A DNA stretch of 64,000 nt from Methanotrichaceae archaeon (GTDB taxonomy: Archaea > Halobacteriota > Methanosarcinia > Methanotrichales > Methanotrichaceae), in the NCBI GenBank assembly GCA_963754945.1, contig CAVWIG010000017.1, positions 192,001 to 256,000 of the forward strand. The letters are read 5' to 3'. The notes under the pieces are model-generated. The model saw nothing but the letters and a program-made list of their open reading frames with translations, was not told the origin of the DNA and ran no database searches. The translations under genes were made by a program, and so were the position numbers. Positions 24,900-52,617 of this stretch are shown here, piece by piece (position 1 is the first letter of the stretch; each line of letters begins with the position of its first letter).

Positions 24900-24990
24900 G
24901 GGCTCGTGGGGTAGAGGACATCCTAGCGGGCTTCGGAGACCAGATCGGAGAAACCCGCTGACCTGGGTTCGATTCCCAGCGAGTCCGCCA
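24900..24990 (+). tRNA. tRNA-Arg(TCG) with a 16-nt intron (24937-24952) and encoded CCA
   Basis: Acceptor GGGCTCG/CGAGTCC, anticodon stem GCGGG/CCCGC, T-loop TTCGATT. BHB-like motif: CTTC/GGAG helix with GGA and AAA bulges; splicing gives loop CT-TCG-GA. Confidence 0.92.
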
Positions 24991-45729: not shown

Positions 45730-48700
45730 ATGAAACCAAATGATAAAAATCCAAAAAAAAATAAGGTCGTCAGAGCATCTCCCGCTTCTCCTCAAACGAA
45801 AGTTGCAACCATCGAGACGGGCCGAAAGAAATCATTCTACATTGTGGGAATGGGCGGGTCAGCCGGCTCACTGGAGGCCTTTGAGGAGTTCTTTCACAAC
45901 ATGCCCGCTGATACCGGCATGGCCTATGTTCTCGTGTCCCATCTTGACCCAACTCACAAAGGCATCATGCCGGAGCTGATCCAGCGCGCCACGAAGATGG
46001 AAGTCCAACAGGTTAAGGATGGAATGAAGGTTCAACCGGACCATGTTTACGTGATCCCGCCGAACAAGGATATGTCCATCCTGCACGGAACCCTCCAGTT
46101 ACTTGAGCCCTCCAAGCCCAGGGGAATGCGAACGCCCATCGACTTCTTTTTCAGGAACCTGGCCGTGGACCAGAAAGAGAAGGGCATAGGCATCATCTTC
46201 TCAGGAATGGGAACGGACGGCACCCTGGGACTAAAGGCCATCAAAGAGAAGATGGGCATGGTGATGGTGCAGGATGTGAACTCGGCCAAGTACACCGGCA
46301 TGCCTGAAAGCGCTATCAATACCGGTCGGGCTGATTATATTTCTCCGGCGGGCGAGCTGCCTGCAAAGCTTGTAGGATATGCTCATCACTTTGCCGGGAT
46401 AATCAGAGAAGTGACGCCTTCAGGGGAGATTCGCTCCACGGGGTCCATTCAAAAGATATTCGCCCTTCTCCGGGCTCAAACAGGAAATGACTTTTCCCTC
46501 TACAAGAAGAATACCGTTCGCCGCCGAATTGAAAGGCGGATGAATCTCCATCAAATTAGTAATATAAACAAATACGTTCGCTACCTTCAGGAGAATTCGC
46601 AGGAGATCGATCTGCTCTTCAAAGAGCTTCTGATCGGCGTGACGAGTTTTTTCAGGGAACCTGAAGCATTTGCCATCCTTAAAGACAAGGTCATTCCGGA
46701 GCTGCTTAAGAACAAGATAGGGGGAGAAACCATTCGCGTTTGGGTTGTCGGCTGCTCCACAGGAGAGGAGGCGTATTCCATCGCCATCGTTCTCGGAGAG
46801 TGCCTTGACGATCTTAAGCTGAAGGGCATCAAGGTTCAGATCTATGCGACTGACTTAGATAAAGAGGCCATTGACGTAGCTCGCCAGGGTCGGTACCCGG
46901 AAAACATCGCTGCGGATATATCAGATGAGCGTTTGCAGCGGTTCTTCACGAAAGAGGACGAACACTACAGCATCAAGAAAAATATCCGGGATGAGATCGT
47001 CTTTGCACAGCAGAACATTCTCACCGATCCGCCGTTTACAAAGCTTGACATGCTCAGTTGCCGAAATCTCTTCATTTATCTTAACTCCGAGACGCAGAAG
47101 AAGCTCCTGCCCCTCTTCCATTACACCCTGAATGCAGGAGGCTTCCTCTTCCTCGGATCTTCCGAGACAATAGGAGGCTACGCCGATCTCTTCTCTCCGC
47201 TGGACAACAAATGGAAGGTCTTCAAGCGCAGGGAGACGCTCCTCGCCCGCAAGGGAATGGTCGAATTCCCCGCAACTCGAATGCCCTTTGAAGCACGGAC
47301 TGTGGCCCCCGTCGGCACACAAAAAGAACCTGAGGTCAGCGTCACTGAGACTGCCAAGGCGTTCATCCTTCAGAACATCGCGCCGCCTGTGGTGCTCATC
47401 AATGACAATGGAGATATCCTTTACCTCACCCGGAAAACGGGAAAATACCTGGAACTGCCTGTCGGAAAAGCGAATTTGAACATATATGCCATGGCCCGCG
47501 AGGGTCTACGAATGGAGCTGGGAATCGCCATTCGTAAAGTGATTGCAGACTGGAAGAGCACAACAGTGAAGAATCTCCGGGTCCAGACGAACGGAAACTA
47601 TCAGACAGTTAACCTCACTGTCAGTCCTTTCGAGGAGCCAGAAGCGATGCGCGGCCTATTGATGGTTATGTTTGATGACGTGGAAGTGCCCGCTCTTGAG
47701 GCTCAATCATCATCCAGGAAAAAATCGAGATCTTCTTCCAGGTTGGAGGCAATCAACTCCGATCTGGAGAAGAATCTGCAGTCCACGAAGGAACATCTTC
47801 AGACCGTCATCGAAGAGATGGAGACCTCCCAGGAAGAACTGAAATCAGCGAACGAGGAGCTTCAATCGACCAACGAGGAGCTGCAGAGCACAAACGAGGA
47901 GATGATAACATCCAAAGAGGAGCTGCAATCCCTTAATGAGGAGCTGACAACCCTCAATGCTGAGCTTCAGTCCAAGAATGAAGAGCTCTCCGAGGTCAAC
48001 AACGATATGAAGAACCTCCTCGACAGCACTCAGATTCCTACCATATATCTAGACAACAATCTGTTGATCAAGCGGTTCACACCCTATGCAACCAAGATCG
48101 CCAATCTCATCCAAAGCGACGTAGGTCGTCCGATCACGGACATCGTATCCAACCTCCAGTACGAAGATCTGGTCGAGGATGTGCGTAATGTGCTGCAGAC
48201 GCTGGTGTTCAAGGAAAATTCAGTGCAGACCAAAGACGGGTCCTGGTTCAGGATAAGGATAGTTCCCTATCGAACGGCTGACAACGTCATAGATGGCGTT
48301 GTGATCACCTTCACCGACATCACCGATATCAAGAATATGACGGAACGCCTGGAGGAGCGATCTCTGTATGCAGAGAGCATCGTCCGCACTGTCAGGGAAC
48401 CGATGGTCGTGTTGAACGGCGATCTGAGGGTTGTTTCAGCCAATCCCTCATTCTATCGATCATTCAATGTGACGCCTAAGCATACCGAGGGGCAGCTCCT
48501 CTACGACCTGGGAAACGGGCAGTGGAACATTCCTGACCTTCGTCGGCTTCTTGAGGAGATCCTTCCCAAAGATGCCCAGGTTGAGGACTTTCTCGTCGAG
48601 CATGATTTTCCAGAGGTCGGGCGGCGGAGGATGCTCCTCAATGCCCGAAGGGTAGCGCAAGAGGACGGCCATACACAGCTAATTCTTCTCGCAATAGAAG

Positions 48701-48759
48701 ACATCACGAATCGCAGAGAGTTATCCGAAACTAAAGTTGGTAAGGGCCATGAAGAATAA
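45730..48759 (+). CDS. CheB/CheR fusion with coiled coil and PAS domains
   Basis: GGSAG/HLDP/SGMGTDG methylesterase motifs, VTSFFRE, GCSTGEEAYS, SCRNL.IY, NEELQS repeats and PAS. Confidence 0.93.
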   Translation: MKPNDKNPKKNKVVRASPASPQTKVATIETGRKKSFYIVGMGGSAGSLEAFEEFFHNMPADTGMAYVLVSHLDPTHKGIMPELIQRATKMEVQQVKDGMKVQPDHVYVIPPNKDMSILHGTLQLLEPSKPRGMRTPIDFFFRNLAVDQKEKGIGIIFSGMGTDGTLGLKAIKEKMGMVMVQDVNSAKYTGMPESAINTGRADYISPAGELPAKLVGYAHHFAGIIREVTPSGEIRSTGSIQKIFALLRAQTGNDFSLYKKNTVRRRIERRMNLHQISNINKYVRYLQENSQEIDLLFKELLIGVTSFFREPEAFAILKDKVIPELLKNKIGGETIRVWVVGCSTGEEAYSIAIVLGECLDDLKLKGIKVQIYATDLDKEAIDVARQGRYPENIAADISDERLQRFFTKEDEHYSIKKNIRDEIVFAQQNILTDPPFTKLDMLSCRNLFIYLNSETQKKLLPLFHYTLNAGGFLFLGSSETIGGYADLFSPLDNKWKVFKRRETLLARKGMVEFPATRMPFEARTVAPVGTQKEPEVSVTETAKAFILQNIAPPVVLINDNGDILYLTRKTGKYLELPVGKANLNIYAMAREGLRMELGIAIRKVIADWKSTTVKNLRVQTNGNYQTVNLTVSPFEEPEAMRGLLMVMFDDVEVPALEAQSSSRKKSRSSSRLEAINSDLEKNLQSTKEHLQTVIEEMETSQEELKSANEELQSTNEELQSTNEEMITSKEELQSLNEELTTLNAELQSKNEELSEVNNDMKNLLDSTQIPTIYLDNNLLIKRFTPYATKIANLIQSDVGRPITDIVSNLQYEDLVEDVRNVLQTLVFKENSVQTKDGSWFRIRIVPYRTADNVIDGVVITFTDITDIKNMTERLEERSLYAESIVRTVREPMVVLNGDLRVVSANPSFYRSFNVTPKHTEGQLLYDLGNGQWNIPDLRRLLEEILPKDAQVEDFLVEHDFPEVGRRRMLLNARRVAQEDGHTQLILLAIEDITNRRELSETKVGKGHEE

Positions 48760-50843
48760 GAAAGCTGGATCGAACCTGAGCAACGATTTGCGCCTCCAGG
48801 CGGAGGAGCGTTTGAAGGACAGCGGAAGAGATTCAGTCCGATTCTACGAAAGAAGAAATAGATCACCTTGCTCTGGTTCACGAGCTGCAGGTCCACCAGA
48901 TTGAGCTGGAGATGCAGAATGAAGAGCTGAAGCGCGCCAGGCTGGAGGCCGAGGATGCTCTGATAAAATATTCCGACCTATACGACTTTGCGCCCATCGG
49001 CCTATTCACCATCGATGTGCAGGGACTAGTCCAGGAACTAAACCTGTCAGGAGCGGCGCTCCTTGGCAAAGAGAGGAGCAAACTATTGCACATGCCTTTC
49101 TGGCGGTTTGTTGTACCTAAGTACCGACCCACCTTTGATGATTTCTGCAAAAAAGCGTTCGATACCTGTACCAAGCAAACGTGCGAATTGGAACTCATCG
49201 TGACAGAAGGTGATGCGGCCTATGTCCGCATCGAGGGCATAGTCACTGAAGATCTCCCGCAAAGCAAGGGAATGTGCCGGATCGCAGTCATCGACATAAC
49301 CGAGCGCAAGAGGGCTGAAGAGATGATGATGAAGGCCAAAGAAGCCGCGTTGGATGCTGTCCGCATAAAGTCCGAGTTCCTGGCCAACATGTCCCACGAG
49401 ATAAGAACCCCCATGAACGCAGTGATAGGCATGACGTCCCTTCTTTTGGAAGAAGATCTTACACCGGACCAGAAGGACTATGCCGAGACCATTCGAGGCT
49501 GCGGCGATGCTCTTATGACCGTCATAAACGACATCCTGGACTTCTCCAAGATGGAAAGCGATAAGGTAACCCTCGATGAACAGAAGTTCGACATAAAAGC
49601 CTGCATTGAGGAAGCCCTGGATCTTGTGGCTCATGTCGCTGCCAAGAAGATGTTGAACCTTGCTTACACGATTGACGAAGAAGTCCCGGACTCCATCATC
49701 GGAGATCCCACCAGGTTGCGGCAGATCCTTGTTAACCTGCTTTCCAACGCCGCCAAATTCACCGATAAAGGAGAGATCGAGCTGTCTGTGTCCTTGAATA
49801 AGGAAGACGGTCGTGAGATTCACTTTGCAGTAAGGGACACGGGCATAGGCATCCGCGAGGACAGAATGGAGAGGCTCTTCCAGGCTTTCAGCCAGGTGGA
49901 CGGATCGACCTCTCGCCTGTACGGCGGAACCGGTCTCGGCCTGGCCATCAGCAAAAGGCTGGTCGAGCTTATGGGCGGCAGAATCTGGGCCGAGTCAGAA
50001 CCTGGAATCGGCTCGACCTTCCACTTTACCATCCGGACAGAGGCCGTTTCGAGCGTTCCAAAGGCGCCTCAGGCACCTCAGTTAATCGGCAGGCGAGTTC
50101 TGATAGCCGATGACAATAGGACCAACCGTCTTATTCTGGGACGACAGGTATATTCTTGGGGCATGATGCCCATGGCAGCTTCGTCTGGCCAGGAAGCTCT
50201 CGGCTGGATCCGGAGAGGAGATGAGTTCGACGTCGCCATCCTGGACGTGTCGGAAATGGATGGCCAGGAGCTGGCAAATGAGATACGCAAGTACGACAAA
50301 TCTCTGCCGCTGGTGATATTCACTTCCATCGGCAAACATGTGACCTCAGACATGTTTGCAGCATCTCTTCCCAAGCCGATTCGAACCACCCAGCTCCACG
50401 AAGTCCTTGTCAACGTCTTCGCCGCCAAGCCAGTTAGGGAGCTATATTCGGCTGAGACCGTCAGCAATGAAGCTCAGATAAGCCCTCTGAGAATCCTGCT
50501 CGCCGAGGACAATACATCAAGCCAGAAGGTTGCAACGGCGATGCTCAAACGTCTGGGTTACAGAGTGGATACTGTAGCCGATGGAATAGAAGCCCTGGAA
50601 GCTCTTAAGCGTCAGCACTACGATGTTGTCCTCATGGATGTCAGGATGCCTGAGATGGATGGCCTGGAGGCCACCAGGGCCATTCGCAAGCTATGGCCGG
50701 ACAATGGACCGAAGGTAATAGCAATCACAGCCTACGCCCTCGAAGGCGACAGAGAGTCGTGCATCGAAGCGGGAATGGACGATTACATCCCCAAGCCCGT
50801 GAAGCTGGAGGATCTCAAGGCCGTCCTTGAGCGAAGCCTGTGA
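48749..50843 (+). CDS. Hybrid sensor histidine kinase (PAS-HK-REC-REC) with a +1 frameshift near its 5' end
   Basis: ATG 48749 frame gives LRLQAEERL; the +1 frame gives LVHELQVHQIELEMQNEEL, FLANMSHEIRTPMN, GGTGLGL and two receiver domains. Confidence 0.85.
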
Positions 50844-51087
50844 TATGCAGCTTCAAAATGCGAGCTATTCGACAATGCTCCCAAGCTTTCTGTTGAGGCT
50901 GCTATTGCACAGATCATCTTGAGTGAAGGAGAGTAGAACTCTAGAAGTCGCTAATATATATTATAATCTGAATAATTACTGGTGATTCTGTGACCTCGCG
51001 ATGTCGGTCGATTACAGGATTCAACAAACCATTTGCCGCTACCGGCAAATATTAGTCTACCCTTTTCTATTAAGAAGTGCATAGAGT

Positions 51088-51158
51088 GCCGGGGTGACTG
51101 ACCGGTTAAGTGCGCGGCTGCAGACCGCGAGAATTGGGTTCGACTCCCAACCCCGGCC
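51088..51158 (+). tRNA. tRNA-Cys(GCA)-like cloverleaf with atypical C73, abutting cysS
   Basis: Acceptor GCCGGGG/CCCCGGC, D stem ACT/AGT, anticodon stem CGCGG/CCGCG with loop CT-GCA-GA, T arm TTGGG-TTCGACT-CCCAA. Followed by C, T, then ATG. Confidence 0.85.
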
Positions 51159-51159
51159 T

Positions 51160-52617
51160 ATGATTATCTACAACACCATGAGCGGCAAGAAAGAGCCGTT
51201 TCAGCCAATTCACAAGAATCGCGTCAACATATTCGTCTGCGGACCAACTGTTTACGACAACTCTCACATCGGACACGCCAGGACCTACATAGCATTCGAT
51301 GTCGTCGCTCGCTACCTCAAGTACAAGGGCTTTTCCGTGTTTTATCTTCAGAACATCACCGATGTTGACGATAAGATCATACAGAGGGCTTCGGAGCTAG
51401 GCATTGAGCCGGACGCTTTGGCGCGCAAGTTTGAGCGAAGGTACTTGGAGGATATGCAGGCGTTGGGCGTGACAAATGTCAACCTCTACGCCAGGGCGAC
51501 AGAGCACATTCCCGAGATCATCAGCCAGATTGAGCGGCTCGTGGAGTTGGGTTTTGCTTACGAGACGGAGACTGGTGTTTACTTCGACGAATCTAGATTC
51601 GAGGACTTCGGGAAGCTGTCGCATCAGACTTTTGAGGAGGTTGCGCGCCACAGGATAGAGCCCGATCCGACCAAGAGGAACCCGGGAGATTTCTCTTTAT
51701 GGAAGAAACGGGAAGACGGGGCTAAGGTAACCTGGGATTCGTCTTGGGGAAGAGGACGACCAGGATGGCACATCGAGGACACGGCCATCACGGAGACCTA
51801 TTTCGGACCTCAGTACGATATCCATGGCGGAGCAATGGACCTAATATTCCCCCACCACGAGGCAGAGATCGCTCAGATGGAGGCGACGTCAGGAAAAAAG
51901 CCACTGGTTAGGGCTTGGATGCACACCGGCTTTCTCAACGTCAAGGGCGAGAAGATGTCTAAGTCCCTGGGAAATTTCATGACCATAAGGGAAATGCTGG
52001 AGAGATGCGATGCCGAAGCTTTCAGATTGTTCGTCCTCCTTGCTCACTACCGATCACCAATTGATTTTTCCGAAGAGGTGCTGGAGCAGTCTCGAAAGAG
52101 CCTTGAAAGAATTCGCCATCTGATCAAGGTCATCGAAGAACAATTAGAAACGCCCGGCGAGATCTCGGAAAGCGAAGGTGTCGACCCAATACTGATCAAG
52201 GCAAGAGCTGAGTTCTTGGATGCGATGGACGATGATTTCAATACGCCTTACGCGCTTCGAACCGTATTCGACCTGGTGAGGGATATAAACCGCAGAATAA
52301 ACGAAAAAAACGTATCGAAGGAGACTTTAAAGGATACGAAACTGCTGCTGGAGGAGTTCGGCAGGGTCTTCGGAATCAGCTTTTCTTCCGGGTCAGAAAA
52401 ATCCATAGGAAAAGAAGAAGACATGGCTCGCGACCTGATCGAGCTGCTTATCGAAATAAGGCAGAAGCTCCGCGAAAAAAAGGACTGGCAGCTCGCCGAT
52501 GAGATACGTAACAGGATGAAGGAATTGAACGTCGTGTTGGAGGATGCCGAAGGAGGTGGCAAATATACACTTCGAGGAGAGAATTGCCTTAATCGCAAAA
52601 CTTATAACCTTCAATAA
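51160..52617 (+). CDS. cysS: Cysteine--tRNA ligase
   Basis: MIIYNTMSGKKE, CGPTVY, HIGH, NITDVDDKII, GRPGWHIE, FPHHEAE and KMSKS. True start is ATG 51160; the track start 51094 lies inside the tRNA. Confidence 0.96.
   Translation: MIIYNTMSGKKEPFQPIHKNRVNIFVCGPTVYDNSHIGHARTYIAFDVVARYLKYKGFSVFYLQNITDVDDKIIQRASELGIEPDALARKFERRYLEDMQALGVTNVNLYARATEHIPEIISQIERLVELGFAYETETGVYFDESRFEDFGKLSHQTFEEVARHRIEPDPTKRNPGDFSLWKKREDGAKVTWDSSWGRGRPGWHIEDTAITETYFGPQYDIHGGAMDLIFPHHEAEIAQMEATSGKKPLVRAWMHTGFLNVKGEKMSKSLGNFMTIREMLERCDAEAFRLFVLLAHYRSPIDFSEEVLEQSRKSLERIRHLIKVIEEQLETPGEISESEGVDPILIKARAEFLDAMDDDFNTPYALRTVFDLVRDINRRINEKNVSKETLKDTKLLLEEFGRVFGISFSSGSEKSIGKEEDMARDLIELLIEIRQKLREKKDWQLADEIRNRMKELNVVLEDAEGGGKYTLRGENCLNRKTYNLQ

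Follow-up and report, generated by a model that had tools for sequence, protein, structure and literature searches.

A tRNA-Cys with discriminator C73 abuts the cysS start codon in Methanotrichaceae: an accessory cassette with a putatively leaderless synthetase mRNA

We analysed a stretch of 64,000 nucleotides (nt) of a Methanotrichaceae archaeon (GenBank assembly GCA_963754945.1, contig CAVWIG010000017.1, positions 192,001 to 256,000 of the forward strand), here called the window, in which a tRNA-Cys gene lies directly against the start codon of cysS, the gene for cysteinyl-tRNA synthetase (CysRS). We refer to this tRNA and cysS together as the cassette. An initial annotation, made from the sequence, had drawn attention to the junction. 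The locus comprises the following features, in window coordinates:

50985..51087, + strand: conserved block upstream of the cassette, a putative promoter (genus alignment and reading of upstream motifs)
51088..51158, + strand: tRNA-Cys(GCA), 71 nt, with G37 and C73 (ARAGORN, Rfam RF00005, covariation)
51159, + strand: 1-nt spacer, T, with which the RNase Z trailer and the cysS mRNA are predicted to begin (sequence reading)
51160..52617, + strand: cysS, 485 amino acids (aa), stop codon TAA at 52615-52617 (translation, NCBIfam, Pfam)

ARAGORN called a tRNA-Cys(gca) at 51088..51158, and the Rfam model RF00005 matched the same 71 nt over model positions 1-71 of 71, with 53.4 bits against a gathering threshold of 29 (E 3.5e-10). 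The acceptor stem, read from the sequence, is GCCGGGG/CCCCGGC. The anticodon GCA occupies 51120-51122 within the loop CUGCAGA and is followed by G37 (51123), the T loop reads TTCGACT, and U8, A14, G18G19, U33, T54-A58 and C61 are all there. From the classical tRNA-Cys identity set, the GCA anticodon, G37 and G1:C72 are present and U73 is absent, the discriminator being C73 (51158). Absent as well is the 5-nt variable loop with A47: the loop has 4 nt (AGAA), a length shared by 24 of 24 cassette tRNAs, and positions 15 and 48 are C and A (the numbering of 15, 48 and A47 is our own). The U73 tRNA-Cys of the host has a 5-nt variable loop and 72 nt in total, one variable-loop nucleotide more than the cassette tRNA. 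CCA is not encoded, which is not special to this tRNA, because most of the 43 ARAGORN tRNA genes of the genome, including both U73 tRNA-Cys genes, are without it.

After C73 comes one T (51159) and then the cysS ATG (51160-51162), with no room in between for a terminator, a promoter or a Shine-Dalgarno (SD) motif. The first run of at least five T past the tRNA lies at 52065, within cysS and ~900 nt in. The initial annotation had described a full cloverleaf with anticodon GCA and G37 that ends 1 nt before the ATG, with C at position 73, C/A at 15:48, no CCA and no space for an SD motif. ARAGORN, RF00005 and direct reading agree on this picture, which is confirmed in every particular.

The synthetase gene is present as a single copy in the genome and scored 501 bits with the NCBIfam cysS model (TIGR00435), against a cut-off of 340. 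Pfam tRNA-synt_1e (PF01406) covers residues 14-312 (E 1.2e-115), and a DALR_2 domain is also present. The protein aligns from residue 3 to solved CysRS structures, the best solved relative being 8qhp (E 2e-137), which supports ATG 51160 as the right start. A phenylalanine at residue 150 (codon 51607-51609) precedes G-K-L-S in the motif F-E-D-F-G-K-L-S of the CP domain; its counterpart in the E. coli CysRS chain is Tyr152, by our own count along the alignment.

The assembly (54 contigs, 2.97 Mb, 87.7% complete) holds three tRNA-Cys(GCA) genes, namely the C73 copy of the cassette and two mutually identical U73 copies on other contigs; the question raised by the initial annotation, whether a canonical U73 tRNA-Cys exists elsewhere in the genome, is thus answered by two. 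This genome encodes SepRS (754 bits), as do 24 of 24 family relatives. A search for SepCysS in the 87.7% complete genome of the window found none; since 24 of 24 family relatives have the gene, it probably resides in the unassembled part. Canonical tRNA-Cys was found in 19 of the 24 family genomes, and cysS exceeded the cut-off in only 10. The tRNA-cysS junction was matched in 11 of 24, exactly those 10 plus one (G023) in which the copy is cut by a contig end, and all 11 junction-bearing genomes also hold canonical tRNA-Cys.

We aligned the cassette tRNAs as 24 distinct sequences, 13 rows of which are from Methanotrichaceae. C73 is found in 22 of them. The universal tertiary nucleotides (U8, A14, G18G19, U33, T54-Psi55-C56, A58, C61) and the anticodon loop are invariant or nearly so across the 24, the loop CTGCAGA being identical in 13 of 13 Methanotrichaceae rows. 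Standard pairs fill 99.8% of the 480 pair cells, and both sides have changed in 8 of 20 pairs (acceptor 3/7, D 1/3, anticodon 3/5, T 1/5). None of 500 shuffles reached the covariation score, and slid controls were 28-47% paired. These patterns indicate that the element is a real tRNA and that its whole cloverleaf is under selection, because compensatory changes occur in all four helices, while a signal or decoy would need only part of the structure.

The spacer from C73 to the ATG measures 1 nt in the genus of the window and 2 nt in other Methanotrichaceae genera. Relatives and named assemblies from Methanotrichaceae gave 34 locus rows (20 distinct) in which one contig carries both the 3' end of the tRNA and an undamaged start of cysS, and all of these show C73 and a spacer of 1-2 nt. 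Metagenomes scanned with a pattern of the tRNA 3' end yielded 90 stretches, which reduced to 80 loci: 10 unrelated chance matches and 70 tRNA matches, which carry no information on base 73 itself since the pattern demanded C73. The spacer in these 70 is 2 nt in 62, 1 nt in five and 5 nt in two, and no ATG follows in one, so that the ATG is kept in 69 of 70. In both 5-nt cases the first ATG has changed to ATT and the next ATG follows. The cassette tRNA was practically never found away from cysS. A sequencing error or pseudo-tRNA is ruled out by the recurrence of C73 and the full cloverleaf in many independent assemblies. The initial annotation had allowed that the C might be a read error in a tRNA whose distance to cysS is not conserved; this is contradicted on both counts, as C73 is real and the spacing is conserved in relatives. 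Outside Methanotrichaceae, the collapsed tRNA-cysS form was seen in two genomes, with spacer TT (G179) or TTT (G068), which reflects either transfer or, for G179, bin contamination.

In a 94-row CysRS tree, the sequences of Methanotrichaceae (23) and Methanobacteriaceae (16) form one clade with a Shimodaira-Hasegawa-like approximate likelihood ratio (SH-aLRT) support of 100. This clade is set apart from 46 other CysRS by two alignment columns, in which it has F150 and F288 where the others have Y and L, respectively. In Methanobacteriaceae an A/T-rich spacer of 29-209 nt separates cysS from an upstream tRNA of the same 71-nt kind, which has C73 in 13 loci and U73 in two. The cassette tRNAs of the two families are identical at 54.8 of 71 positions on average, against 46.8 of 72 for the comparison with host U73 tRNA-Cys. 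The shared CysRS clade and the tRNA similarity imply that tRNA and enzyme were inherited or transferred together. Taken with the distribution within the family, this makes the pair of CysRS and C73 tRNA an accessory cassette that is inherited jointly and common to Methanotrichaceae and Methanobacteriaceae.

Decaying extra copies of the cassette were observed in three genomes (loci L026/L049, L027, L028, L030 and L022; genomes G005, G019 and G018). They show deletions that fuse the tRNA 5' part to the middle of cysS, a cysS with an ACG start and stops, or a mutated tRNA without cysS, which suggests recurrent duplication of the cassette together with its promoter block. Three genomes also hold a second, divergent SepCysS paralogue (~400 bits, against ~550 for the main copy) on the same contig, 3-6 kb from the cassette (G002:C78:27134-28270, G018:C65:10960-12093 and G005:C64:5074-6210). 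In G019 such a paralogue lies ~25 kb from the cassette, and none was found in the window's own genome.

The match between enzyme and tRNA extends beyond the C73 class. To the sample we added 60 cysS 5' regions from 251 genomes of the phylum. At 58 cysS loci with an adjacent tRNA-Cys, the residue at the position of Phe150 and the discriminator base combine as Y with U73 (11/12), F with C73 (32/33), I with A73 (8/8) and N with G73 (5/5). Within the C73 clade, one locus (L066) has changed both partners, to U73 with Y. In family f13 (10 genomes), cysS has no adjacent tRNA and its product carries V or I here; all five genomes checked encode an A73 tRNA-Cys elsewhere, beside U73 tRNA-Cys genes. These A73 genes (GCAGGGA...TCCCTGC-A) were found by pattern search and in three of the five genomes lie 5-6 kb from cysS (G058:C1:196134, G076:C1:2165514, G083:C3:60289); a BLAST search of f13 for A73 tRNA-Cys with a distant g24 tRNA returned U73 genes only. 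The comparison indicates that the CysRS residue before G-K-L-S tracks base 73 of the neighbouring tRNA, with Y for U, F for C, I for A and N for G.

Part of this pattern has a precedent. According to the summary of Perona et al. 2018 in PMC8762117, non-U73 tRNA-Cys occurs in methanogens, with G73 in Methanospirillum/Methanoregula, C73 in some Methanobacterium and A73 in Methanolobus/Methanocella. The same summary states that these tRNAs are accompanied by an altered acceptor-binding region of CysRS, and that orthogonality of the SepRS and CysRS systems was proposed from them. U73 is described as an identity element for SepRS and SepCysS in excerpts of PMC9499178 and PMC8762117, and A47 in a 5-nt variable loop as a minor SepRS element in an excerpt of PMC9976931. 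Our observations share the extra non-U discriminator and the acceptor-region change of CysRS with the Perona et al. 2018 summary; relative to that summary they name one residue position, and add physical linkage, the 1-2 nt fusion and Methanotrichaceae.

Across archaea it is common for a tRNA-Cys to precede cysS directly, at a distance of 8-53 nt, and the spacer often contains a GGTGA/AGGAG-like motif. Such spaced loci include L294 and L297-L299 (f14), L077, L080, L100, L087 and L073 (DPANN), L290-L293 (f16), and L319-L322 and L337 (g24). Spacers with a GGTGA-like motif measure 8-12 nt in ANME-1-type loci (ANME standing for anaerobic methanotrophic archaea), and 9-38 nt in DPANN, where some of the tRNA-Cys contain introns. 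At Methanolobus-like A73 loci the spacer is 24-30 nt, and at G73 loci 20-24 nt. Every adjacent non-U73 class seen (A73, G73 and C73) is linked to cysS. The Methanotrichaceae arrangement appears to be the extreme of this widespread tRNA-Cys-cysS operon, collapsed to a predicted leaderless form.

In an alignment of the three genomes from this genus, the conserved block starts ~110 nt upstream of the cassette tRNA. In the window this block holds the motif TTGCCGC (51033-51039) and a TATA-like box, AAATATTAG, at 51047-51055, ~32 nt before the tRNA 5' end. Read by eye, most of the 20 distinct Methanotrichaceae loci have a ATTGCCGC-like motif, a gap and a TATT-type box at ~-57 to -30 from the tRNA; of the 20, L007, L009, L012 and L023 lack the ATTGCCGC-like motif and TATT-type box. 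The block is a candidate archaeal promoter. Because its box geometry is as expected for an archaeal promoter, with a start ~10 nt upstream of the tRNA, transcription would begin near 51076-51079 and give the tRNA a leader of 9-12 nt. RNase Z (360 bits), the archaeal CCA enzyme (458 bits) and RNase P RNA (208 bits) are all encoded in the genome of the window. SD-like motifs precede 331 of 1637 crude open reading frames (ORFs) of this genome, against 72 in a control window, and given this enrichment a cysS predicted to have no leader stands out.

Two other elements upstream of or around the tRNA were considered and rejected. One, a candidate Cys-rich leader, is a 12-codon ORF with two Cys codons (MRAIRQCSQAFC, 50858-50896), situated between the histidine-kinase gene and the cassette, outside and upstream of the conserved block. 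G000 and G001 have it; the congeneric G002 lacks the region, and the ORF is probably due to chance. Pairing of the 5' leader with the 3' trailer (CAUAG with CUAUG), seen in a fold, is unconserved in other genera.

A decayed tRNA stands upstream of cysS in the genus designated g10 (L010:1448-1530 in G011:C46; L011:96-178, minus strand, in G023:C93). What remains is the promoter block at its usual distance, CCGGGG as the 5' strand, a short hairpin resembling the D arm, the T arm in full, the acceptor strand of the 3' side, C73 and TC-ATG; ~37 unpaired, fast-diverging bases take the place of the anticodon arm. An Rfam scan of the relic gave no tRNA match even at E up to 10. Its folds are unremarkable (z-scores -1.2 and -0.6), and reading it as a t-element rests for this reason on the retained parts. 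Exactly the acceptor/T-arm half, which RNase P and RNase Z recognise, has been retained in g10, and this single lineage thus speaks for a requirement of that half in cysS expression. Elsewhere in the two g10 genomes (94% and 87% complete), every tRNA-Cys gene found has U73; the acceptor stems of two, L179 and L180, are imperfect.

From these observations we consider it somewhat probable that CysRS and the C73 tRNA-Cys are a matched pair made from one transcript, and that RNase Z cuts this transcript after C73 to leave a leaderless cysS mRNA. The core route to Cys-tRNA in the host would be SepRS/SepCysS acting on U73 tRNA-Cys, to which the cassette would add direct charging with cysteine. The C73 tRNA would be a functional extra isoacceptor with which the Phe150 variant of CysRS co-evolved. 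It is probably invisible to the indirect route, because U73 is the identity element of SepRS and SepCysS, and would be reserved for CysRS. A single promoter ~35-40 nt upstream of the tRNA would drive both genes, and the tRNA transcript must run into cysS because neither a terminator, a promoter nor SD room lies between them. RNase P would trim the 5' leader, RNase Z would cut after C73 and the CCA enzyme would complete the tRNA. The trailer, beginning with U-AUG (UC/UU-AUG in other genera), would then be a leaderless cysS mRNA with a 5' monophosphate. The tRNA and the enzyme would come from one transcript, and translation of cysS would depend on tRNA 3' processing. Release of a leaderless mRNA by RNase Z was one of two possibilities offered by the initial annotation. 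It fits the 1-2 nt spacing, the lack of room for an SD motif or terminator, the upstream block and the encoded enzymes, and the cleavage itself is predicted. We infer charging specificity, co-transcription, cleavage and leaderless translation alike from sequence comparison.

A more far-reaching version, which we hold tentatively and as falling short of even chances, is that cysS has neither a promoter nor a leader of its own, is born as an mRNA by the RNase Z cut at its own C73 tRNA, and is preceded in g10 by a relic that acts as a pure processing signal. Enzyme output would, as part of this same tentative version, be tied one-to-one to a private tRNA that SepRS/SepCysS could not use. Binding of CysRS to the unprocessed precursor could add feedback.

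Several points weigh against these interpretations. We know of no demonstration in this group that a leaderless mRNA with a 5' monophosphate is translated, and the enrichment of SD-like motifs argues that SD-led initiation is in use in the genome. The link between residue 150 and base 73 is one of co-variation, and each discriminator class is mostly one clade, so that few independent events underlie it. Within the C73 clade two loci have changed a single partner (L056, U73 with F; L060, C73 with Y). We found no publication describing a contact of the residue-150 equivalent with U73 in the E. coli complex. The g10 CysRS still has F150, though only U73 tRNA-Cys genes were found in its genomes (94% and 87% complete), which makes strict dependence on C73 doubtful or gives the g10 enzyme another role. 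Lastly, an A/T-rich variable loop lies ~27 nt before the ATG, the place of an internal TATA box.

This last feature could mean that the A/T-rich region of the variable loop is a weak TATA element that starts a separate, overlapping transcription unit and yields a triphosphorylated leaderless cysS mRNA, the 1-2 nt spacing being fixed by the TATA-to-start distance and not by RNase Z. We regard this as unlikely. All family members do have an A/T-rich 4-6-mer centred 25-30 nt upstream of the ATG (AGAATT in the window; ATATT, TTATT, ATAAT or ACAAT in other genera), and the g10 sequence upstream of the A/T stretch is now A-rich (AAACGAAAGAATC) and more promoter-like. However, the element amounts to 4-6 A/T bases flanked by G+C, and intact tRNAs have no purine-rich element resembling the B recognition element (BRE). 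Host U73 tRNA-Cys and the unfused Methanobacteriaceae tRNAs are equally A/T-rich here and thus give no sign of promoter selection. Moreover, transcription of the tRNA would still run on into cysS for want of a terminator, and the RNase Z product would arise anyway. A slightly less likely account is plain hitch-hiking, in which a redundant tRNA-Cys has a neutral C73 and the junction is mere compaction of an old gene pair. The frequency in archaea of U73 tRNA-Cys upstream of cysS with SD-bearing spacers of 8-38 nt (ANME-1-type, DPANN) would suit it, as would the persistence of the g10 CysRS without an intact C73 tRNA. Compaction alone does not predict a spacer held at 1-2 nt in ~90 independent sequences while the flanks diverge, four bases at position 73 each paired with their own CysRS residue, or a strict co-occurrence of C73 tRNA and cysS in a family whose members always retain U73 tRNAs and SepRS.

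The other possibility named by the initial annotation was a non-chargeable mimic: a decoy cloverleaf which, in the manner of the thrS operator, would bind CysRS (or SepRS) and so repress translation or processing. The E. coli thrS operator is a partial mimic of the tRNA-Thr anticodon arm; the ribosome-binding site lies within it, and it undergoes neither processing nor charging. The cassette resembles it in that a tRNA shape of the cognate type directly precedes a synthetase start codon, and C73 is foreign to the classical identity set of CysRS and SepRS. Unlike the thrS operator, it is a complete, conserved tRNA gene without a ribosome-binding site, and hence no partial mimic distinct from a tRNA gene. 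It has the universal nucleotides, an invariant anticodon loop and compensated anticodon and D stems. In Methanobacteriaceae the same tRNA lies unfused, 29-209 nt from cysS, and cannot be a leader there; the enzyme carries a matching change (F150), and the decayed extra copies lose tRNA and cysS together. We therefore set this proposal aside as very improbable. The processed, matched pair remains our preferred reading.

The junction can be compared with several known systems. In animal mitochondria, tRNAs punctuate transcripts, and cuts by RNase P and RNase Z create essentially leaderless mRNAs. The cassette is alike in that a tRNA abuts an mRNA, at 1-2 nt in 67 of 70 metagenome matches. It differs in belonging to a free-living archaeon and a single operon, in that the tRNA would be the cognate substrate of the encoded enzyme, and in that the cleavage is here predicted. 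The pylT-pylS pair is another dedicated tRNA/synthetase gene cassette. An excerpt of PMC5389517 describes a selC* tRNA-Cys with cysS* in Desulfobacterales, the synthetase having CP1-domain changes for the 1:72 pair. The present cassette shares with both pairs an unusual tRNA beside an adapted synthetase in a unit that moves between lineages. Those systems involve recoding of a stop codon or an odd tRNA shape, whereas the tRNA here has a standard anticodon and shape, departs only in discriminator and variable loop, and is joined to the start codon. tRNA-like structures that tRNase Z and RNase P cut to make RNA ends are known as t-elements in plant mitochondria (PMC1920247), and in Haloferax volcanii tRNase Z cuts a t-element that precedes 5S rRNA (Hölzle et al. 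2008, 2012; summarized in PMC4326828). The g10 relic, with an acceptor-like stem and T arm and no anticodon arm, resembles the latter. In Haloferax volcanii, however, an rRNA lies downstream of a non-functional tRNA element, in contrast to an mRNA and, outside g10, a complete tRNA here.

Three components are thus already in print, as far as the partial texts and summaries cited above go: non-U73 tRNA-Cys with an altered CysRS, tRNase Z-processed tRNA-like elements, and dedicated tRNA-Cys/CysRS* pairs. In the literature we found no tRNA-Cys fused to the cysS start codon, no C73 tRNA-Cys in Methanothrix, no family-wide 1-2 nt spacing, no linkage of the non-U73 classes to cysS and no single co-varying residue, although earlier descriptions are possible.

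If the preferred reading is true, one cell would contain two parallel cysteine-decoding channels, SepRS/SepCysS with U73 and CysRS with C73. It would provide one candidate specificity residue (Y, F, I or N reading U, C, A or G at position 73), useful for the engineering of orthogonal tRNA/synthetase pairs. It would also be a prokaryotic case of tRNA 3' processing that creates a translatable leaderless mRNA, and would bear on leaderless initiation at 5'-monophosphate ends in archaea and on the origin of mitochondrial punctuation. cysS would be a mobile, often duplicated and often decaying cassette in environmentally dominant acetate-using methanogens, with a bearing on when such methanogens use free cysteine and when tRNA-dependent cysteine synthesis.

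Two further observations concern the remainder of the window. Upstream of the cassette, 45730-50843 encodes a CheB-CheR-PAS fusion (1009 aa) and a hybrid histidine kinase/response regulator (643 aa); these signalling genes have no evident link to the cassette. At 24900-24990 lies a 91-nt tRNA of ambiguous identity that may contain an intron: ARAGORN reported tRNA-Pro(cgg) in its plain mode and tRNA-SeC(tca) when introns were allowed.

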